From the NCBI GenBank assembly GCA_965200965.1, contig OZ241744.1:3424001-3488000 (forward strand): a DNA stretch of 64,000 nt, given 5' to 3'. A model generated the notes under the pieces. It saw only the letters and a list, made by a program, of their open reading frames with translations, made no database searches and was not told the origin of the DNA. Positions 13,161 through 43,247 of the stretch are shown here, piece after piece. Source of the stretch: an uncultured Candidatus Binatia bacterium (lineage in GTDB: Bacteria > Desulfobacterota > Binatia > Bin18). The stretch's first letter is position 1. Every line of letters starts with the position of its first letter. A program made the position numbers and the translations under genes.

Positions 13161-14394
<1,234 letters not shown>

Positions 14395-14777: not shown

Positions 14778-14804
14778 GTCTTCATCGGGATGACAGGCTA
14801 CGCT

Positions 14805-15341
14805 ATGGCCAAGCAATGGTACATTGTCCATACCTACTCCGGGTATGAGTGGAAAGCCAAGGCAGCTCTTGAAGAACGCATCCGTACGCTCGGCAAGGAA
14901 GACCTGTTCGGCGATGTCCTGGTTCCCGAAGAGCAGGTGGTTGAGCTTGTCAAAGGCCACAAACGGACCTCGGCCCGCAAGTTTTTTCCCAGCTACATCC
15001 TGGTCCAGATGGAGATGAGTAACGAGACTTGGCATGTTGTCAAATCAACGCCGAAAGTCACCGGCTTTGTCGGAGGCTTTGATCCCCAAACCATCCCCCC
15101 GGTGTCTGAGGCCGAGGTGGCAGCGATTCGGAACCAGGTCCAGGAAGGGGCCCTACGACCAAAGCCCAAGGTTTTGTACGAGGTTGGTGATGGGGTGAAG
15201 GTAGTGGACGGACCTTTTCAGGATTTCACCGGCAAGGTTGAAGAGGTCAAGCCGGGCAAAGGAAAATTGCGGGTGTTGATCAGCATCTTCGGTCGGGCAA
15301 CCCCGGTTGAACTCGACTTGGTACAAGTCGAGAAAACCTGA
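14805..15341 (+). CDS. nusG: transcription antitermination factor NusG
   Basis: [14 protein letters not shown] motif [18 protein letters not shown]. Confidence 0.98.
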
Positions 15342-17550: not shown

Positions 17551-20500
17551 ATGACCTTGCAGCTGGCAGATAATTTCCGCTTCCGCCGGAAGTTCGGCCA
17601 AATCGGCGAAATCACCCAGATTCCACACCTGCTGGAGATCCAACGGCTCTCGTATGAGAAATTCCTCCAGGGGGAGCCAGGCCCGGAAGAACGGATGGAA
17701 TCCGGGCTTCACGGGGTCTTTCGCTCGGTTTTTCCGATCAAGGATTTCAATGAAACCGCTTCTCTGGAGTTTGTGAGTTATACGCTTGGAGAGCCAAACT
17801 ACACGGTGGAGGAATGCCATCAGCGCGGGATGACCTATGCCGCCCCCCTGAAAGTGACCATCCAACTTGTTCTTTGGGATGTTGATCCGCGGACAGAAGC
17901 CCGCACGATCAAAAATGTCAAGGAGCAGGAAGTCTATTTTGGCGAGATCCCGCTGATGGCCTCGTATGGCACGTTCATGGTGAATGGGACCGAGCGGGTT
18001 ATTGTGAGCCAGTTGCACCGCTCGCCCGGGGTCTTCTTCGATCACGATAAGGGCAAGACCCACCCCAGTGGAAAATTCCTCTATTCCGCCCGGATCATTC
18101 CGTCCCGGGGATCGTGGATTGACTTTGAGTTTGACCCGAAAGACATCCTGTATGTCCGTATTGACCGCCGCCGCAAGTTCCACGCAACGGTGTTGCTGCG
18201 GGCTTTGGGGATGACGGTCGAGGACCTGCTCACCTACTTTTATCCGACCGATACCATTACTGTTGAGGGCGGTCGTGCCACCAAAAAATTCCAGCCGCAG
18301 CTCCTGCTCGGTCTGCGCGCGACCCACGATGTCCGACATCCGAAAACCCAGGAGGTGCTGGTCAAAGAAGGACGCCGGTTCACCCGTAACGCGATCAGAC
18401 AGATGGAGGCCGCCGAGGTTGAGCAGATCCCGATTGGCCTTGGAGAGATTGCAGGCTCGGTCACAGCCCATGATGTGCTTGACCCGGAGACACAGGAAGT
18501 CCTGCTTGAGTGCAACCAGGAGTTGAGCCAGGACGACCTTGACCGCCTGATTGAGCGCAAGGTCTCGACCATAGAGACATTCTGTATTGACGAGTCCCCC
18601 ATTGGTCCATCCCTGCGGAAGACCTTGCTCCAGGACATCCAGGACAAAATTGTTTCTCCCGAAGAGGCCAAGAAGGAGATTTATCGTCGCCTCCGTCCCG
18701 GAGATCCGCCAGCGGCCGAGGCGGTAGGGGTTTTCTTTGAAAACCTGTTCTTCAACGCCGAGCGTTACGATCTGTCCAAGGTTGGCCGCCTCAAACTCAA
18801 CTATAAACTCCAACGTGATACTCCGCTCGATCTGGGGACCCTGCGCAAAGAGGATATCCTTGAGGTCGCACGGTATCTGTTTGAGTTAAAAAACGGCAAC
18901 GGGGTCGTTGATGATATTGACCATCTTGGCAACCGGCGGGTGCGGGCGGTCGGGGAGTTGGTTGAGAATCAGTTCCGGATTGGCCTGGTCCGCATGGAGC
19001 GGGCGGTCAAAGAGCGCATGAGCCTCCAGGATGTCGAGACCCTGATGCCCCAGGAACTGGTCAACTACAAGCCTGTGTCGGCCGCGCTGAAGGAATTTTT
19101 TGGATCGAGCCAGTTGTCGCAGTTCATGGACCAGACCAACCCCTTGTCTGAAGTGGCCCATAAGCGGCGTCTGTCGGCCCTCGGACCGGGCGGCTTGACC
19201 CGGGAGCGGGCCGGTTTTGAGGTCCGGGATGTGCATCCGACCCACTATGGACGGGTGTGTCCTATCGAGACACCCGAAGGGCCGAATGTCGGGCTTATTG
19301 CAAGCCTGTCAACCTACGCCCGGGTGAATGAATTCGGCTTTATTGAGACGCCGTACCGCAAAGTTGAGGATGGTCGGGTGACGCAGGATGTGCAGTATTT
19401 GTCTGCCCTTGAAGAAGAGACGCAGACTATTGCCCCGGCCGACGCCCCAATTGACGAGGACGGGCGGTTTATCCCAGACCGCCAAGGCCAGGTTTCTTCC
19501 CGCCAGCGCGGCGAACCTGAGCAGGTCCAGCCTGATCAGGTCCAGTTGATGGACGTGTCTCCCACCCAGTTGGTGAGTGTTGCCGCGGCCCTGATTCCCT
19601 TTCTGGAACATGACGATGCGAACCGCGCCCTGATGGGTTCGAACATGCAGCGCCAGGCAGTTCCCCTGCTGCGAACCGAAGCGCCGCTGGTTGGCACTGG
19701 GATGGAACAGGTCGTTGCCCGGGATTCCGGCGTGACGGTCGTCGCCCGCCGGAGCGGCTTTGTTGAAAGTGTCGATTCCAGACGTGTTGTGATTAAGGCG
19801 GATACGCCGCTCACTGCCGGCGATGCCACGGTCGATATCTACCCGCTCATCAAGTACCAGCGTTCCAATCAGAACACCTGTGTGAACCAGCGGCCGATCG
19901 TCAAAGTTGGCGACTCTATCAAGGCCGGCGATGTGATTGCCGATGGACCGGCCACCGACATGGGGGAGTTGGCCCTGGGCAGGAATGTCCTGGTCGCGTT
20001 CATGATCTGGGAGGGCTACAATTTTGAAGACTCCATCCTGGTCAGCGAGCGTATGTTACGCGAGGATGTGTTCACTTCGGTGCATATTGAAGAATTTGAA
20101 TGCGTTGCCCGCGACACCAAACTCGGTCCAGAAGAGATCACCCAGGATATCCCGAATGTCGGTGAAGAAGCCCTCAAGGACCTTGACGGCAGCGGTATTG
20201 TCAGGATCGGCGCTGAGGTGAGGCCGGGCGACATTCTGGTCGGCAAGATCACACCCAAAGGCGAGACCCAGCTCTCTCCCGAAGAGAAGCTGCTCCGCGC
20301 CATCTTCGGCGAAAAAGCCGGAGAAGTCCGCGATACCTCGCTGCGTATCCCTCCCGGTGTTGAGGGCACGGTGATCAATGCGCGCGTCTTCTCTCGCAAG
20401 GGGGTGGAGAAAGATGAGCGGAGCCAGAGCATTGAGGACGAAGAGGTTGAGCGACTCCGCAGAGACCAGGAAGATGAAATCCGGATTGTCCAGGAGAGCA

Positions 20501-21669
20501 CATTCGGAAAAGTCCGCGACCTGACGCTGGGCAAAGTTCTGACCGTTCGGATCCGCGACGAGGAGACCCGGAAGGTCCTGTTTCCCAAAGGCCACGAGAT
20601 TAGCGAAGAGGTGCTGCGGGCCATTCCCCCCGCATACTGGGGCCGGCTCAGGCTTGGCGATGAGGCGATTGAGGACGAACTGAGCCAGAGCGTCGCCGCC
20701 ATGCTGGAGCAGATTGGCCGGATTCGTGAAGAGTCTGAGAAGAAGGTTGAGAAGCTCCGCGGTGGGGACGAGCTGGCACCCGGCGTCACCAGGATGGTGA
20801 AAGTCTTTGTCGCCATGAAACGCAAACTCCAGGCCGGCGATAAGGTGGCTGGGAGACACGGCAACAAAGGCGTACTGTCCCGGATTGTGCCCGAAGAAGA
20901 TATGCCGTATCTGGCCGACGGGACCCCGGTTGATGTCGTCCTCAACCCGCTGGGCATGCCCTCACGGATGAATCTCGGGCAGATTCTTGAGACCCATCTC
21001 GGCTGGGCCGTGCGGGGCCTCGGCGAGCAGATGGGCAACAGCCAGCCGACGCAGTGCAAAGACCGCCGTGCCCGACTCCAGGATGTCTATGACAACAAAG
21101 ACCTTGTTGACACAATTCAAGCCTTGCCGGCGTCTGATCTGAACCGCCTGATTGAGCGCGCCCAGACCGGGGTGCATGTGGCAACGCCCGTGTTCGACGG
21201 TGCTCCGGAAAAAGAAATTTCTGACCTGCTGCAAAAGGCCGGCTTGCCCGAATCTGGACAAACCGTGCTCTATGACGGGCGAACCGGCGAGCGTTTCGAT
21301 GGAGATATAACGGTTGGGGTGATGTACATCCTGAAGCTCCACCATCTTGTTGAGGACAAAATCCACGCCCGCTCTACCGGCCCCTATTCGCTGGTGACCC
21401 AGCAGCCCTTGGGCGGCAAGGCCCAGTTTGGCGGACAGCGGCTGGGAGAGATGGAAGTGTGGGCTCTTGAAGCCTATGGTGCGGCCTATAGTCTGCAAGA
21501 AATGCTGACGGTCAAGTCGGACGATGTGGCCGGTCGGACCCGTATCTATGAGGCGATTGTGAAAGGAGACAATGTACTGGAACCAGGGCTTCCCGAATCG
21601 TTCAATGTCATGGTCCGAGAACTGCAAAGCTTAGCGCTCAACGTCGAACTGCTTGAGGACGACGAATAG
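17551..21669 (+). CDS. rpoB: RNA polymerase beta subunit
   Basis: [27 protein letters not shown]. Confidence 0.99.
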
Positions 21670-21688
21670 AGTACGCTGGGGGGGAAAG

Positions 21689-24600
21689 ATGGAAGATCTT
21701 CTTGGCCTTTTTGAGAAGCCTCAGAATCCGGTCCGTTTTAATGCTATCCGGGTCGCGCTGGCCCCTCCCGATATGGTTCGTTCCTGGTCGCACGGAGAGG
21801 TCAAGAAGCCTGAAACCATCAACTACCGCACATTCAAGCCCGAGCGCGACGGCCTGTTCTGCGCCAAAATTTTTGGTCCGACCAAAGATTACGAGTGTAA
21901 CTGCGGCAAGTACAAACGGATGCGTCACCGTGGGGTCGTGTGTGAAAAGTGTGGTGTTGAGGTGATTCAGTCCAAAGTACGCCGGGAGCGGATGGGGCAT
22001 ATCCCCCTGGCCAGCCCTGTCACCCATATCTGGTTCCTCAAAAGCCTGCCGAGCCGGATTGGCACCCTGCTGGATATGACGCTCAAGGATCTTGAACGGG
22101 TCCTGTATTTTGAGTCGTATATTGTGACCGACCCGCTCCAGACGCCGCTGAGCAAGAAACAGGTCCTGTCCGAAACCCGCTACCGGACACTGCTTGAGGA
22201 GTTCGGTTCTGGCAGTTTTCAGGCTGGAATGGGAGCCGAGGCGATCCGGCTGTTGTTACAGGAGTTGAATCTGGAAAAACTGGCCGAAGAGTTGCGCGCC
22301 GAGCTGATGGAAACGGGGAGCGAGGCGCGCCGCAAAAAGATCACCAAACGCCTCAAGGTCATCAACGCGTTTCGGCACTCCGGCAATCTGCCCGAATGGA
22401 TGATCCTGGAAGTGGTTCCGGTCATTCCTCCCGACCTCCGCCCCCTCGTGCCTCTGGACGGCGGGCGCTTTGCCACCTCCGACCTGAATGATCTGTATCG
22501 GCGGGTGATCAACCGCAATAACCGCCTCAAACGCCTGATTGAGTTGAGCGCGCCCGACATCATTGTTCGCAATGAAAAGCGGATGCTCCAAGAGGCAGTT
22601 GATGCCTTGTTTGACAATGGCCGGCGCGGGAAGCCCTTGACCGGGCCCAGTAAACGGCCGCTCAAGTCCCTGTCCGATATGCTCAAAGGCAAAGGCGGAC
22701 GTTTTCGGCAGAACCTGCTCGGCAAACGGGTGGACTATTCGGGCCGGTCCGTCATTGTGATCGGTCCCGAGTTGCGCCTGCATCAGTGCGGGTTGCCCAA
22801 GCATATGGCCTTGGAACTGTTCAAGCCCTTTATCTACAACAAGCTCGAAGAACGGGGCTATACTACGACCATCAAGAGCGCCAAAAAGATGCTGGAACAA
22901 GAGCGCCCGGAAGTCTGGGATATCCTGGACGAGGTTATCAAGGAGCATCCGGTTCTGCTCAACCGTGCCCCAACCCTGCACCGGCTGGGCATCCAGGCGT
23001 TTGAGCCCGTCCTGATTGAGGGCAAGGCAATTCAACTCCATCCCCTGGTCTGCACGGCCTATAACGCCGATTTTGACGGCGACCAGATGGCGGTTCATGT
23101 GCCCCTCTCGGTCGAAGCCCAGGTCGAAGCCCGTACCCTGATGATGTCAACCAATAACATCCTGTCACCCACCCACGGCAGGGCGGTTATCGCCCCGACC
23201 CAGGATATTGTGATGGGCCTGTATACCATGACCCGTGAGCGGCCCGGGGCAAAAGGTGAGGGGAAAATCTTCAGCGGTCCAGACGAAGTTCGTATTGCCT
23301 ACGATCAGGGTCAGGTCGCACTCCAGGCTCAGATCAGGGTCCGCATGGACGGACAACTGGTCGAGACAACGGTCGGGCGGATCGTGCTGTATGATATCGT
23401 GCCGCCTGAGATTCCGTTTTCTGAAGTCAACCGGACGATGAAGAAAAAGGAGTTGGGCAGCCTGCTGGACAGCGCCTTTCGCAAAGCCGACAACAAAGCC
23501 ACCGTCATTTTTGCCGATCGTCTGAAGGATATGGGCTTTGAGTACGCAACCAAAGCCGGAATCTCATTCGATATTCGAGACATGGTGATCCCCAAGAAAA
23601 AAGAGGAACTGCTCAACACCGCCCAGGCGGATATCCAGGAGATCCAGGAGCAGTACTACAAGGGGCTTATCACCGATGGCGAGCGTCATAACAAAGTCGT
23701 TGATACCTGGGTCACGGTCACCGATGAGGTGGCCGATAAAATGCGCATCGGTTTTCGGGAGGATCGTCAGGGATTCAACCCTGTCTTCATGATGGCTGAC
23801 TCGGGGGCGCGGGGTAGCACCCAGCAGATGCGCCAACTGGCCGGGATGCGCGGGCTGATGGCAAAGCCATCCGGCGAGATCATTGAAACGCCGATCACTG
23901 CCAACTTCACAGAGGGACTGTCTGTCTTGCAATACTTCATTTCAACCCACGGGGCACGCAAGGGTCTTGCCGACACCGCCCTGAAAACAGCCAACTCGGG
24001 CTATCTGACCCGCCGTCTGGTTGATGTGGCCCAAGACTGCATCATCAGCGAACACGACTGCGGCACAATTGACGGCATTGAGATGGGCCCGCTGGTTGAA
24101 GGCGGAGAAATCATTGAGGGGCTGGGCGAGCGCGTCCTCGGCCGGGTTGCCCTTGATGATATCCGCGATTCGTTCTCCAACGAAGTCTTCGTTCCGGCCA
24201 ACGAAGAGATTGACGAGGAGCGGGTGCAGCGGATTGAAGACACCGGTATTGAAAAGCTCTCGATTCGCTCGGCTTTGACGTGTCAGAGCCGACGCGGGGT
24301 GTGCATCAAGTGCTATGGGCGTGACTTGGCGCGTGGGCGTATGGTCAACATCGGTGAAGCGGTTGGCATCATGGCGGCCCAGTCAATTGGCGAGCCCGGC
24401 ACCCAGCTTACGATGCGGACCTTCCACATCGGTGGAGCGGCCAGTGACGAGGCAAAAATAGCGGACCGGTCCACCCGCAACGGGGGGACGCTGCGCTATA
24501 TTGCTCTCAAGACGGTCAGCAACCGTGAGGGCGATCAGGTCGTCACGAATCGGAACGGTAAGGTCGCTATTGTGGACAGTTCATCAGGTCAGGATCGGGA

Positions 24601-26374
24601 GTTGGAGCGTCATTCGATTGAGTACGGGGCGAAGCTCAAGAAAAAGGACGGGTCCACAGTCGAACCGAAGGAACTGATTGCGGAGTGGAACCCCTACATG
24701 GTTCCTATCCTGACCGAGGTCGCCGGCACGATCAAATTCGTTGACATCAGTGAAGGCATTAATATGGAGGAGAAGGTTGATGAGGCTGGTTTATCGACCC
24801 GGGTCATCATCCCAATTCAGACTGATTCGTTGGCTGAGAAGATACACTCTTGTACCGAGGAGATAACCAAACTGGAGGAGGAGCAACATCCAGAGGAGAT
24901 TCGTAAGAAGTACACAGGGAGGATAAGAAGTCAGAAAACCAAGAGGGCTGCTCTGCAGGACGAGTTGAAGCAGATGCAAAAACCCAAGCCTCCTGATGTT
25001 GAGTGGTTTTTCGGGCTTCAGATACACTCTTGTACCGAGGAGATAACCAAACTGGAGGAGGAGCAACATCCAGAGGAGATTCGTAAGGCGTACACACGGA
25101 GGATAGAAAGCAAGAGGGCTACTCTGAAGGGCGAGTTGGAGCGGATTCGTAAGGCGTACACACGGAGGATAGAAAGCAAGAGAGCTACTCTGCGCGAACG
25201 GGAGGACGAGTTGGAGCAGATGCAAAAACTCAAGCCTCCTGATATTGAGTGGTTTTTCGGGCTTCAAATGCTTGAGGAGATACGCTCTTGTACCGAGGAG
25301 ATAACCAAACTGGAGGAGGAGCAACAGGAGGAGATTCGTAAGGCGTACACACGGAGGATAGAAAGCAAGAGAGCTACTCTGCGCGAACGGGAGGACGAGT
25401 TGGAGCAGATGCAAAAACTCAAGCCTCGCATCTTGATCAAGGACGATAAGGGGAAAACAGCCAAGCTGCCCAGCGGTCCTGATGCGGTCTATACGCTTTC
25501 TGCTGGTACCCGTGTTGACGTGGTTGAGGGCCAGCAGGTTGAAGCGGGTGACGTGCTGGCCAGGATTCCTCGAACCACTTCACGCAAGACGAAAGATATT
25601 ACGGGCGGTCTGCCTCGAGTGGCAGATCTGTTTGAAGCCCGAAAACCCAAGGAATTTGCCGTCATCAGCGAAATTGATGGCATGGTGTCTTTTGGCAAGG
25701 ATACCAAAGGCAAGCAGAAGGTTGTCATCACGCCGGATGTGGGAGATCCGCGTGACTATCTTATCCCGCGTGGAAAACATATCAGTGTCCGCGAGGGTGA
25801 TTATGTCCGGGCCGGCGACCCCCTGATGGACGGCTCGCCCAATCCGCACGACATCCTTGGCGTGCTCGGAGAAAAGGAACTCGCCAAGCGGTTGGTTGAT
25901 GACGTGCAGGAGATTTATCGCTTGCAGGGTGTCCATATGCACGACAAGCATATTGAGGTCATCATTCGCCAGATGATGCGCCGGGTGGCTGTCACCCAGG
26001 TCGGCGATTCTGATTTTCTGCTTGGCGAGCAGGTCGAAAAATGGCGATTCCAGGAGGAGGTCGAAAAGGTCCTGGCCGAGCAAGGTCAACCGCCCGAGGC
26101 GAAATCACTCCTCATGGGTATCACCAAGGCCAGTCTATCGACCGACAGCTTTATTTCCGCGGCTTCATTCCAGGAAACGACCAAGGTGCTGACCGAAGCC
26201 GCCATCAATGGGAAGGTCGATATGTTGTCGGGGCTCAAAGAAAACGTCATTATGGGCCGACTGATCCCAGCCGGGACCGGCAACCCCAGTTATACTGCAA
26301 TTGAGGCCGAGACTGTCGAAGCGCCGGGTGATGAAGAACAGGGTCAACTGCCGCCGATAGTTGAGGCGTCGTAA
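21689..26374 (+). CDS. rpoC: RNA polymerase beta' subunit with ~200-aa repeat insertion in SI3
   Basis: [25 protein letters not shown]; 1561 aa from ATG 21689. Confidence 0.99.
24840..25427 (+). repeat. in-frame mosaic tandem repeat inside rpoC
   Basis: AGATAC(A/G)CTCTTGTACCGAGGAGATAACCAAACTGGAGGAGGAGCAAC at 24840, 25020 and 25278; ATTCGTAAGGCGTACACACGGAGGATAGAAAGCAAGAG x3 plus one variant. Confidence 0.95.
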
Positions 26375-26385
26375 GTGGAGAAGAC

Positions 26386-26757
26386 ATGCCGACAATTCAG
26401 CAACTCGTCCGAAAAGGCCGGGAGCAGCAGCGCGAGAAGTTGACTGCGCCGGCCCTGCAAGCCTGTCCGCAACGCCGTGGGGTGTGTACGCGGGTATACA
26501 CCACAACGCCCAAGAAGCCCAACTCGGCTCTGAGAAAAGTGGCCCGGGTGCGGCTCACGAATGGGATTGAAGTCACGGCCTATATCCCAGGTATCGGACA
26601 TAACCTCCAGGAACACTCCGTCGTCCTCATTCGCGGCGGACGGGTGAAGGACTTACCCGGGGTGCGTTACCATATCGTGCGCGGTACCCTCGATTCGATT
26701 GGAGTCCAGGAACGCAAACAGAGCCGCTCGAAATACGGAGCAAAGCGACCCAAATAG
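26386..26757 (+). CDS. rpsL: 30S ribosomal protein S12
   Basis: [22 protein letters not shown]. Confidence 0.99.
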
Positions 26758-26776
26758 GCCGCAAGAAGAGGGACCA

Positions 26777-27247
26777 ATGCCACGCAAAGGACCAGCCCCA
26801 AGGCGAGAAGTGCTTCCCGACCCCAAATATCACGATACGGCGGTGTCAAAATTCGTGAATATGATGATGCAGAACGGCGCAAAAGGGGTGGCTGAAAAAA
26901 TTCTGTACAGCGCAATGGAACTAAGCGGAACGCGGAGTGGTGAAGACGCACTCGAAATCTTCAAACGGGCTTTAGAAAACGTGAAGCCCATTGTGGAGGT
27001 TCGCTCGCGTCGAGTAGGCGGCGCAACCTACCAAGTGCCTGTTGAGGTCCGTCAAGTGCGGCGCAACTCTCTGGCCATGCGCTGGCTCGTCCAGTCCGCG
27101 CGCAGCAGACCCGAGAAAGGGATGAAAGAGAAGCTCGCCGCAGAGTTGTATGAAGCCTCACAGAACAGGGGTGGGGCGGTGAAAAGGCGAGAAGATACGC
27201 ATCGGATGGCAGAGGCAAATAGGGCGTTTGTCCACTATCGGTGGTAA
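26777..27247 (+). CDS. rpsG: 30S ribosomal protein S7
   Basis: [26 protein letters not shown]. Confidence 0.99.
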
Positions 27248-27295
27248 AGATGGGCACGGGCGGGCTCTTTCCAGTCGGTATGGGGTACAGGCTAG

Positions 27296-27323
27296 TTGAC
27301 TCTTGTGAAATAGTCCGTACAAT
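27296..27323 (+). promoter_or_regulatory. sigma70 promoter for tuf2 and the S10 operon
   Basis: TTGACT-16 nt-TACAAT in the rpsG-tuf spacer. Confidence 0.65.
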
Positions 27324-27418
27324 TGCCATCCCTTGAGCGGAGCGTTGGGAAGAGAGCAGGGGACAGGAAACGGCCGCTGAGCGAAGAGAATCCGACCTCT
27401 GTCACAGGGATTCCTCCC

Positions 27419-28652
<1,234 letters not shown>

Positions 28653-41172: not shown

Positions 41173-41385
41173 ATGACATCTCTGACTTTCTTTGTAGCGG
41201 CGTCGCTGCTCGCATACTACCTTCAGTTACTCCTGATCGGTGGTAGACTGTTCATGATGCATCGAGCCGGCCTGCGACGCGATCGGCAACTTGATGTCAT
41301 GGAGGCCGGGTCGCAGGCACGGTCTCGCGCTTTGGACGAGCAGACTCAGTTATTGCGCGAGGCGACTCAGTCGCTAGCGGAGTAG
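41173..41385 (+). CDS. small hypothetical protein (N-terminal TM plus coiled coil), possibly truncated by TAG
   Basis: ATG with GGGG SD; hydrophobic N-terminus; frame stays open for 17 codons after the TAG, to TAA 41437-41439. Confidence 0.55.
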   Translation: MTSLTFFVAASLLAYYLQLLLIGGRLFMMHRAGLRRDRQLDVMEAGSQARSRALDEQTQLLREATQSLAE

Positions 41386-41555
41386 AACCGGTCATTGGAG
41401 AGCCGGGTGCTGGGAGAGCTACTGCGGCGGACGGGATAACTGAAACGGCCGGGTTGTTTGATCAGCCCCGTATGTTAACGCCAAAACGGCGGTTCGGTGC
41501 TATTGCCGCCGCATAATCTGTATGGGCGACACCACGACAGCGGAGGAACATCTCT

Positions 41556-43247
41556 ATGGCAACACCTGGGAAAATGAGCGTTGAGAAGGGAAGGAAGTTT
41601 GAGGACTGGTGCGAGGACCATATCCGCGACGAAGTGTTTCCTAACGAGGACTATTTCAGAATCAAGCGCCAACATCATCCCGGCGGGAATTTGGAGAGGG
41701 TGGACTTTCACGTCCAGCTCAAGAAAAAACCTGGAAACCAAGGTTTGGTCATTGAGTGTAAGAATTATGGGAAATCTTCACTGGAATTGAGAAAGGCGAT
41801 TCGTCAAGTAAAGGAATATAAGAAGGCTACTGGGGCAAAGTGGGCGATGATATGGATAAGCAACGAGAGTGTGCCTTCCCCCGAATTTTTGAAGGATGCC
41901 AGCGATGCCGGAATTGAAGTTCATCAAATCGATATGTCTTTTATCCAGAAAGTGCCGATATTGAGGAACTTCAGAAAGAAACACAGGATCCTGAATCGGA
42001 ATAAGGAGGATGCCACATACATCGATCGCATGCACCGCGAATTAGCGGAGTATCTTGCAGAGGAGAACCAATCTAGCATAGCGGAAGCTCTGAATGAGAT
42101 GGAAATGGAAGTCGAGAGGGACTATAGAGCCTTTCTTGAACTCGTCGATATACCGGACGAGATGGGTGTTACGGAGGACTCTGGAGACTTCCTTTCTTCC
42201 CCGCATATGCAACCTGAAAGAGCCACAATGCAGAAGATTGATCTCATCAAGCCCGAGGAAATCATCGTTGATAAAGAAACCCTGACCGCAACCTATGGTC
42301 GCTTTACCGGGGAGCCTTTTGAGCGCGGGTTTGGCCTAACCCTGGGGAATGCCTTGCGTCGGGTCTTACTCTCCTCGCTGACCGGCGCGGCCATTACCAA
42401 GGTGCGCATCAACGGGGTCCTGCACGAGTTCTCAACCGTGTCCGGCATGACGGAAGATGTCACCGACCTCTTACTAAACCTCAAAGAAATCCGCTTCCGC
42501 CTTGAGGACACCGACCAGGAGACGATCCGGCTTGACGTGCAAGGCCAAGGGGAGGTCACCGCGGCCGACCTGAAAACCGATGCCCAGGTCGAGATCCTGA
42601 ATCCTGACAAGCACTTGGCCAGCCTCGGTAAAGACGCCAGCCTCGAGTTTGAAGCCGTCGTCCAAACCGGCCGGGGATATGTGACTACCGAGCAGCACAA
42701 ATCTGAGGACGACCCCCTTGGCACAATTCCGCTGGACGCGGCATTTTCTCCGGTGCGCAGGGTCAATATCACAGTCACCAACGCGCGCGTAGGCCAACGG
42801 ACCGATTATGAGCGGCTGGCCCTTGAAGTGTGGACCGACGGCAGCCTGAGACCAGAAAAAGCGGTTGCGGAGGCGGCCCGGATTATTCAAGACCAGTTCA
42901 GCGTTTTTGTCGGCCCAAGTGAGGAACAGGAATGGCGGGCCGAGACCAGGGAAGAGCCGGCTGGGGTCGTGAATGAAAATCTGCTGCGGCCGATTGAAGA
43001 ATTGAACCTGTCGGTGCGGTCTGCCAACTGTCTCCAGAGCGCCGACCTGCGCTATGTCGGCGAACTCGTCCAGCGCACCGAGCCAGAGTTGCTCAAGACC
43101 AAGAACTTTGGTCGAAAGTCCCTGAACGAAATCAAGGATACCCTCCAGAACATGGGGCTTGAGTTGGGTCTTCAACTCGGCGATTTTCCTTCGCGCGAAG
43201 AGTTGGACCGTAGGCGAGCAGAATACGAGCCAGAACTCAGTTCCTAG
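41556..43247 (+). CDS. rpoA: RNA polymerase alpha subunit with N-terminal PD-(D/E)xK endonuclease-like domain (RpoA portion from ATG 42228)
   Basis: RpoA: [46 protein letters not shown]-terminal 224 aa: KGRKFE..VDF..VIECKNY..IRQVKEY. SD GGAGGA before 41556. Confidence 0.95.

Follow-up and report, generated by a model that had tools for sequence, protein, structure and literature searches.

A repeat-built, predicted helical insert in the fast-changing SI3 domain of RNA polymerase from an uncultured Candidatus Binatia bacterium

The rpoC gene of an uncultured, sponge-associated Candidatus Binatia bacterium, encoding the beta-prime subunit of RNA polymerase, carries inside SI3, the insertion of the trigger loop, an in-frame, repeat-built addition of net 196 amino acids (aa), predicted to project as a long antiparallel coiled-coil arm from an intact SI3 made of a pair of sandwich-barrel hybrid motifs (SBHMs). 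The gene lies in a stretch of 64,000 nucleotides (contig OZ241744.1 of assembly GCA_965200965.1, positions 3,424,001 to 3,488,000), hereafter the window. In the clade of this bacterium, amino-acid change in SI3 runs at about five times the pace of the other parts of RpoC, bulky inserts unrelated to each other have entered SI3 on two occasions, and the alpha, beta and beta-prime subunits have repeatedly gained a nuclease domain. The reading that we favour, to which we give slightly less than an even chance, is that the surface of the polymerase is under contest and that the insert acts there as a steric shield, directed against polymerase-binding proteins of phages or plasmids, the outside binder being postulated. 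Throughout, G000 is the genome of the window, and the other codes beginning with G, P, L and X denote other genomes, proteins, loci and sequencing runs, respectively.

The insert and its predicted arm

The insert is built of shuffled modules in the order A-B'-C-D-A-B-B-C-D-A-B-C, spans residues 1052-1246 of RpoC and is flanked by LSTRVII and KPRILIKD. This inventory, with its positions and order, had been given by a first-pass annotation of the DNA and is borne out by repeat mapping of the window; the module letters held for the most part, the third A beginning with IRSC and the first C departing from the single 11-letter form assigned to it. The repeats recur in the DNA with spacings that are all divisible by three, namely the 180 and 258 nt already noticed in the annotation for one family, and 180, 66 and 189 nt for the other, and the copies are up to 98% identical over 101 nt, far beyond chance; the array is absent from the output of Tandem Repeats Finder. 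The purine-rich DNA, described as unlike flanking rpoC, is indeed so (64% in the insert vs 53% in the remaining gene, where the top 600-nt window reaches 57%), and charged residues make up 44% of the insert. Its net length was measured against the congener G006. Alignment of 30 relative loci and the sister protein P0003 places the site in the second SBHM of SI3, where the loop that receives the insert normally counts about 7 residues, in agreement with the normally short SI3 loop of the annotation; in the numbering of Escherichia coli beta-prime the site lies between about 1062 and 1072, the upper limit being taken from a Pseudomonas alignment. Inteins are recognized by a Hint splicing domain and by terminal Cys/Ser and His-Asn residues; a Pfam scan of RpoC up to E 1 returned no intein family and the insert translation has no intein-type ends.

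The insert is a real in-frame addition, and the alternative that its repeats were mis-joined by the assembler, which we find hardly credible, is already largely refuted. In fact, contigs matching the unique junctions were found in all four runs examined, coming from three studies: seven listed pieces of X1 are free of mismatches, and those of X3 and X4, labelled sponge metagenome, have a few. The copies are distinguished by fixed substitutions, two further assembled RpoC proteins (P0007 and P0008) show an identical module layout with substitutions of their own, and P0003 has a homologous insert. What can be said for an artefact, an objection raised by the annotation itself, is that among the contig pieces listed none spans the entire insert, and that one X7 contig with one unit fewer exists, whose depth of 4.7 and patchy cover make it too weak to count; the source sample may moreover be X1 or X2. 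A deep contig of X2, from a related strain, joins the two flanks by 58 letters instead of 643 and represents the empty site.

The structure of SI3 was modelled with AlphaFold2 from a 32-row alignment (mean predicted local distance difference test score, pLDDT, 81; predicted template modelling score 0.61). The SBHM core, with pLDDT mostly above 90, is predicted to keep its fold and superposes on E. coli SI3 (4IQZ) with Z 21.2 and a root-mean-square deviation of 2.0 over 176 residues (overall Z 20.5-21.2 over 176-181 residues). The insert, for which the alignment had one homologous row, is modelled with pLDDT of about 60-93, falling below 50 at model residues 189-208, as helices at model residues 139-188, 205-216, 222-273 and 280-336. 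Its two ends are predicted to pair at the base of the arm, and the second D module, with its Trp-Phe-Phe, lies at the predicted tip turn; at the textbook rise of 0.15 nm per residue the longest helix, of 57 residues, would measure about 8.5 nm, and the arm is predicted to reach up to about 8 nm. A single-sequence model was poor (pLDDT 52) and again rendered the insert all-helical. A fold search with the insert matched antiparallel coiled coils only, with Z up to 9.4, a generic result that allows no family call; the mycobacterial beta-prime coiled coil (PDB 5UH7, Z 8.3) is one of these many matches. Prediction thus agrees with the charged coiled coil proposed by the annotation, on a host domain that retains its fold.

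Turnover of SI3 and of its inserts among relatives

Among 55 genomes of the family, 46 have an SI3 match, and 41 of these 46 carry no large insert there and 5 carry one, so that the insert is not a lineage-wide extension of SI3, as the first-pass annotation had allowed that it might be. The insert described above, hereafter type I, occurs among the 46 in G000 alone and elsewhere only in the proteins P0003, P0004, P0007 and P0008. In P0003, a sister RpoC that is 91% identical in the core, the A, B and C modules are rearranged and D is missing, for a net length of 105 aa. Since P0003 shares the modules in a different arrangement, the unit goes back to a common ancestor, and each lineage amplified it on its own; it sits at the tip of a loop that is short in relatives lacking the unit, and its in-frame duplication took place independently in the two sister lineages. 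The appendage had also been called actively expanding, which is supported in part: differing layouts are seen only in sister P0003 and in the low-depth contig, whereas three assemblies of the same species share one layout and the copy number within the species looks fixed. P0003 also has, at residue 575, an extra internal duplication of 24 aa, and P0004 is a 367-aa C-terminal fragment of RpoC that starts at a Met within the last repeat unit, a broken assembly or a split gene.

Searches for further copies, in the genome or in phages, which the annotation had in view, found none: blastn and tblastn on the G000 genome gave no copy outside the insert (best outside match E 0.043), and the unit has no relative in the Atlas, PDB sequences, annotated phages or JGI metagenomes, the last being a set from which close records may be missing. 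Besides P0003 and P0004 no relative was present among 7093 and 7993 candidates, and the first 62 residues had none among 1.84 billion representatives. Pfam matches of the insert were all under the cut-off, and in PHROGs there were weak coiled-coil-like matches, with a best E of 5.6e-5 over 21 residues; a possible likeness to Gam of phage Mu was supported by neither scan.

A second insert, type II, is found in G002, G004, G005 and G056 about 10 residues downstream of the type I site. It is helical and 212-238 aa long, and homology between the two types was rejected (best E 0.028). In particular, G005 carries both type II and a nuclease on alpha, and G006 and G001, 98-99% identical to it in core RpoC, carry neither. 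The GC content at third codon positions of type II is below that of host genes, no relatives were found outside RpoC, and 2 of 30 Atlas matches were mitofusin-like (0.92), a weak mitofusin/dynamin-like lead only. Around the G005 site no clear tract of co-conversion was seen (11/120 differences in that window vs 1-8 elsewhere). Other candidates for inserts were discarded: the long open frames in G014 and G057 are upstream read-through, and the split SI3 match in G003 is a frameshift. Elsewhere in beta-prime, rpoC of G047 (L058) has at residue 210 a Cys-rich insert of 27 aa with two CxxC pairs, zinc-ribbon-like by eye.

The host domain itself is in rapid change. The SI3 core of G000 is 65% identical to that of P0003, with 91-100% in the other parts of RpoC, and 55% identical to that of G007; across 11 control pairs the SI3 core is 81-99% identical. 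Downstream of SI3, G007 has likewise diverged, to 72-78%. In a comparison of 782 windows between G000 and G007 (median identity 91%), a window of SI3 is one of 8 at or below 65%; in the same sample, a large open reading frame (ORF) at G000:C1:3178412-3181855 holds the most diverged windows, with 27-58% identity. Within the species, differences in strain proteins fall on 13 and 9 of the 184 SI3-core positions vs 18 and 11 of the 1175 outside SI3. Among the codon changes listed, the SI3 core has 10 that are non-synonymous and none that is synonymous, and the part after SI3 has 0 and 2, respectively. Of 83 class-conserved SI3 residues, G000 retains 56, P0003 59 and G007 64, and the 29 others 70-83; several of the losses in G000 are charge changes. 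The ratio of non-synonymous to synonymous substitution rates (dN/dS) of rpoC between G000 and G007 is 0.42, which ranks 29th among 280 gene pairs, several apparent shadow frames ranking higher. Among 28 genes of the window cluster, it is 0.46 for rpoC, 0.31 for rpoA, 0.28 for nusG and 0.25 for rpoB, and about 0.03-0.16 for ribosomal proteins.

The shield is, among the readings considered, the best fit because bulky gains have recurred at one SBHM, the surface turns over on an intact fold, and Gre and DksA are unchanged. An outside protein binding SI3 or the entrance of the secondary channel would drive the changes, and the arm, moving with SI3 at each nucleotide addition, would obstruct this putative binder while Gre and DksA still work. 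Among phage proteins, T7 Gp2 binds the jaw of the polymerase. In E. coli, SBHMb, one of the SI3 motifs, makes contact both with the jaw and with TraR, a plasmid factor of which phages and plasmids commonly encode relatives (PMC6970531), and SI3 has been described as moving at every nucleotide addition and as setting pausing (10.1101/2021.01.27.428476; PMC4227799; PMC11077087).

Several observations weigh against this reading. The pace of variation in the insert matches that of the SI3 core (11 and 9 of 202 positions in strain proteins), and its codon changes, among those listed, are 13 non-synonymous and 3 synonymous; with insert and core pooled, 23 of 26 changes are non-synonymous, p 0.10 against neutrality. 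The dN/dS of SI3 between G000 and G007, 0.33/0.41, is below 1, and selection is relaxed genome-wide, with a median dN/dS of 0.24 over 280 G000-G007 gene pairs. Furthermore, G007 and the related X2 strain have a fast SI3 without any insert, and G039, with about 21 extra residues in the insert loop, shows that this loop is tolerant.

Some of these facts feed the main rival, which we consider possible if on balance improbable, namely that the arm is a useless relic that is merely tolerated. In this view SI3 is under loose constraint in a symbiont prone to drift, and one of its loops, being permissive, took up a helical unit, which may have been a stalk without its cargo. The unit would then have been amplified by unequal recombination, its frame being kept only since rpoC is essential. 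The near-neutral changes of the insert and the high genome-wide dN/dS fit such a history, as do a pair of substitutions that strains show simultaneously in two copies, which indicates homogenisation between copies, the second duplication of P0003 elsewhere in RpoC, and the viability of small SI3 deletions reported in E. coli (PMC11077087). However, SI3 is an outlier even on the relaxed background, the same SBHM was struck by two unrelated inserts, and three assemblies agree on one layout, even though copies so alike would be prone to collapse. Moreover, large inserts concentrate on RNA polymerase though the genome otherwise tends to lose sequence. In a sample of 1.2 of the 5.4 Mb of G006 (1427 ORF pairs including shadow frames, 587 of them non-overlapping), 12 indels of at least 8 aa are longer in G000 and 26 longer in G006, and in the 587 non-overlapping pairs type I is the sole G000-longer indel of at least 100 aa; a genome-wide proneness to insertion was rejected on this sample.

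The functional idea of the first-pass annotation was that the arm perhaps affects pausing or the access of factors and inhibitors. Taken as a retuning of regulation, the arm would alter how SI3 moves, pausing, or how the Gre and DksA of the cell itself gain access, a change adapting the bacterium to symbiosis and needing no outside antagonist. The part played by SI3 in nucleotide addition and pausing (10.1101/2021.01.27.428476; PMC4227799) would give such an arm something to act upon, and rpoC, rpoA, nusG and rpoB all have a high dN/dS among the cluster genes. Nevertheless, we regard this as quite unlikely: Gre and DksA are present in 8/8 genomes of the genus and barely change, so that a loss of either accompanying the insert was rejected, and a one-off change predicts neither a turnover that continues at strain level nor unrelated inserts in near-identical relatives.

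Nuclease domains fused to RNA polymerase subunits

The type I insert is one among several additions that RNA polymerase has received independently in this family, a context that the first-pass annotation of the insert had missed. About 16 kb downstream of the insert, in the same window, the gene for the alpha subunit (41556-43247) is a 563-aa frame that ends with the 339 aa of RpoA and begins, at an ATG preceded by GGAGG, with an Mrr-like PD-(D/E)xK nuclease domain. The native ATG of alpha is kept in G000 and plain alpha may therefore also be made; in G007 and G058 there is no ATG at the native subunit start, where an in-frame GTG or ACG might be used instead. The nuclease motif E...D...(E/D)xK is intact in G000, and D, C and K are invariant in 9/9 members of the family; in nine full-length strain proteins the motif is unchanged, with 3 variable positions in the 145 of the nuclease vs 8 in the 339 of alpha. 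Eight of the nine members match Mrr_cat (PF04471) at E <=0.01, the G000 copy scoring 19.3 bits against a cut-off of 21 and the G041 copy 25.1 bits, above it; the G041 domain also matches positions 41541-41966 of the window at E 1.4e-14. In PADLOC one of the nine members matches LmuA (E 0.0004) and the G000 domain matches nothing, no search for a Lamassu context having been made.

The nuclease family occurs in 9 of the 55 family genomes and in 10 of 401 genomes of the class, nine of the ten matches being in two genera. It is fused to alpha in G000, G007, G005 and G056, to the N-terminus of beta in G058 and inside beta-prime in G041, and is free-standing in G061, G051, G059 and G120. The fused domains are 22-40% identical to one another, and a single origin of the four alpha fusions was rejected by the approximately unbiased test (p 0.0004; the group was chosen after the first tree and includes two long branches). 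Because that single origin is rejected, and with the beta and beta-prime fusions added, at least four fusion events are indicated. The domain is present or absent between close relatives, and its GC is lower than that of host genes. Linker-like sequence stands before alpha without a nuclease in G004, G020 and G062, remnants which indicate that loss of the nuclease cargo happens, and which lend the relic explanation a precedent. All of the polymerase additions, inserts and fusions alike, fall within two genera, and the other matched family genomes show none. No nuclease of this family was matched in viral contigs or annotated phages, and outside the class pattern searches, of low reach, gave only free-standing or unrelated nuclease matches. 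In beta of G060 (L177), near residue 1004, there is another insert of about 138 aa.

The beta-prime nuclease of G041 sits between two coiled coils, and the type I unit might be a relative of this stalk that has lost its cargo. In an end-to-end comparison with the stalk, P0003 scored above 99.98% and G000 above 99.5% of random pairs drawn from 407 real helical 32-mers, and the anchored likeness exceeded heptad-preserving shuffles (p 0.0045 and 0.0095). SI3 inserts and polymerase-nuclease fusions also co-occur, in 3/5 genomes with an insert vs 3/41 without (Fisher p 0.012; kin are not independent). On the other side, unanchored comparisons gave E 0.075 and 0.089 and were not significant, the anchored test was picked once the likeness had been seen, and the signal of G000 comes from the C-terminal end only, its N-terminal end being equalled by 42% of controls; insert and nuclease, moreover, also occur apart, G007 having only the nuclease and G002 and G004 only an insert. 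On these sequence comparisons a shared origin of the unit and the nuclease-carrying stalk has roughly an even chance.

Such a kinship would also suit a selfish cassette, in which a stalked nuclease spreads in frame into essential polymerase genes in the manner of a homing endonuclease but without splicing, the SI3 insert being its duplicated scar. The near-restriction of the family to two genera, its occurrence both free-standing and fused at three subunits, its lower GC and its coming and going between close relatives are what a mobile element would produce. To these can be added a small ORF adjoining the fusion, common to different genera: the 70-aa frame between rpsD and rpoA has homologues at the matching place in G056, G020 and G062, which belong to another genus, where it is longer and repeat-expanded, the G000 copy being truncated by a stop before the shared end. 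We nonetheless hold this explanation to be improbable. Three insertion sites would require three target specificities, N-terminal fusions are easily lost, intein or intron features are absent, and no co-converted flanks are evident around the G005 type II site; furthermore, it leaves the type II insert and the amino-acid turnover of SI3 unexplained.

The shield may be one half of a wider arrangement, an armed and guarded polymerase, which we advance as possible but doubtful. The tethered nuclease would cut DNA upon transcription of foreign or modified DNA or upon seizure of the enzyme by a phage, the SI3 arms and the surface change would block phage binders, and the insert would be the amplified stalk of a nuclease cassette.

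The features discussed are collected in Table 1. As to the neighbouring genes, rpsL and rpsG are followed directly by a copy of tuf (window 26386-28645), with no fusA-sized ORF between, and a second tuf-sized ORF of 392 aa lies at 13209-14387.

Table 1. Coordinates of the polymerase features in the window and, where a locus code is given, in other genomes.
Feature	Position	Strand	Remarks
rpoC (RNA polymerase beta-prime)	21689..26374	+	one open frame, 1561 aa counted from ATG
SI3 (trigger-loop insertion) including insert, residues 917-1302	24437..25594	+	two-SBHM core predicted intact, fast-evolving
Repeat insert, net 196 aa, surface loop of second SBHM	24815..25420	+	predicted long antiparallel coiled coil
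Module A, 3 copies	24842..24886, 25022-25066, 25280-25324	+	repeat mapping
Module B variant (B')	24899..24955	+	nearest to B module of sister protein P0003
Module B, 3 copies	25079..25126, 25145-25192, 25334-25381	+	repeat mapping
Module C, 3 copies	24959..24991, 25205-25237, 25394-25426	+	repeat mapping
Module D, 2 copies	24992..25021, 25238-25267	+	second copy at predicted arm-tip turn; missing from P0003
Mrr-like PD-(D/E)xK nuclease domain, fused in frame to RpoA N-terminus	41556..41990	+	E16, D50, E67, K69
Nuclease-alpha linker, about 79 aa	41991..42227	+	
RNA polymerase alpha core, 339 aa	42228..43247	+	own ATG retained
70-aa ORF between rpsD and rpoA	41173..41385	+	hydrophobic stretch and helix
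Stretches behind the high dN/dS genes (rpoC, rpoA, nusG, rpoB)	17551-26374, 14790-15341, 42228-43247		
rpoC loci with type II insert	L031 (G002), L032 (G004), L033 (G005), L055 (G056)		helical, Gly/Ala-rich hydrophobic stretch
G041 rpoC insert, 240 aa, at beta-prime residue 553	L057:5944-6711		coiled coil, Mrr_cat domain, coiled coil

Comparison with known systems

Core RNA polymerase ranks with the most conserved of enzymes, and insertions in it are usually seen as stable marks of a lineage, made in the trigger loop of SBHMs. In the present clade, helical inserts are gained and lost among near-identical relatives, and SI3 outpaces almost all of the sampled proteome. If the conflict is real, it points to proteins of phages or plasmids with SI3 as their target, and to a form of defence that is tethered to transcription; if the polymerase is armed as well, immunity would be built into the core transcription machine. 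In any case, these are natural variants for the standing question of what SI3 and its outer SBHM do, and they name a loop that accepts 200 extra residues. The insert is new among the surface insertions of RNA polymerase, being helical, not SBHM, and species-level, not lineage-wide. In the literature, no paper was found on an rpoA-Mrr fusion, on recurrent nuclease fusion to alpha, beta and beta-prime, on these inserts (at the level of titles and abstracts) or on RNA polymerase of Binatia from sponges, the search lying outside subscription insert catalogues and supplements, which could bear on novelty.

The putative nuclease shares with Mrr-family enzymes (Mrr_cat, PF04471) the catalytic motif, found in the alpha-fused domain and its relatives, and differs from them in having no Mrr N-terminal domain and in being fused to RNA polymerase subunits. 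Inteins and Rickettsia palindromic elements are said to be, like the insert, in-frame additions inside essential proteins; the insert, however, has no intein domain, and the palindromic elements are reportedly dispersed in many copies across the genome, whereas the insert is confined to a single locus in G000.

Lane and Darst reportedly surveyed the lineage-specific insertions of bacterial RNA polymerase. Such insertions, to which the mycobacterial beta-prime coiled coil (PDB 5UH7) belongs, are described as additions to the surface, 50-500 aa long, that lie within non-conserved spacers (Lane and Darst, as described in PMC6970531), a size and a place that the 196-aa insert in its variable surface loop fits. 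Unlike these stable marks of whole lineages, the present additions, some of which are nuclease domains, vary from one genome to another at 99% identity in RpoC, and type I is present in one of the 46 matched family genomes.

With E. coli SI3 (beta-prime i6; PDB 2AUK, 4IQZ) the host domain of G000 shares two SBHMs placed in the trigger loop; in E. coli the loop at the site is short, whereas in G000 it holds a repeat-built insert that both models render all-helical. According to a 2021 preprint, all known trigger-loop insertions consist of SBHM repeats (10.1101/2021.01.27.428476); the host domain conforms, being of two SBHMs, and the added part, as predicted, does not. The cyanobacterial Si3, of 645 aa and 8 SBHMs, is reported to shield the factor site at the secondary channel (PMC10895346), and like the domain of G000 it is an enlarged SI3. 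It is, however, built of SBHM repeats, shared by a whole phylum and found where Gre and DksA are absent, whereas the arm described here is predicted to be helical, is a species-level feature and stands on a polymerase that keeps both factors.

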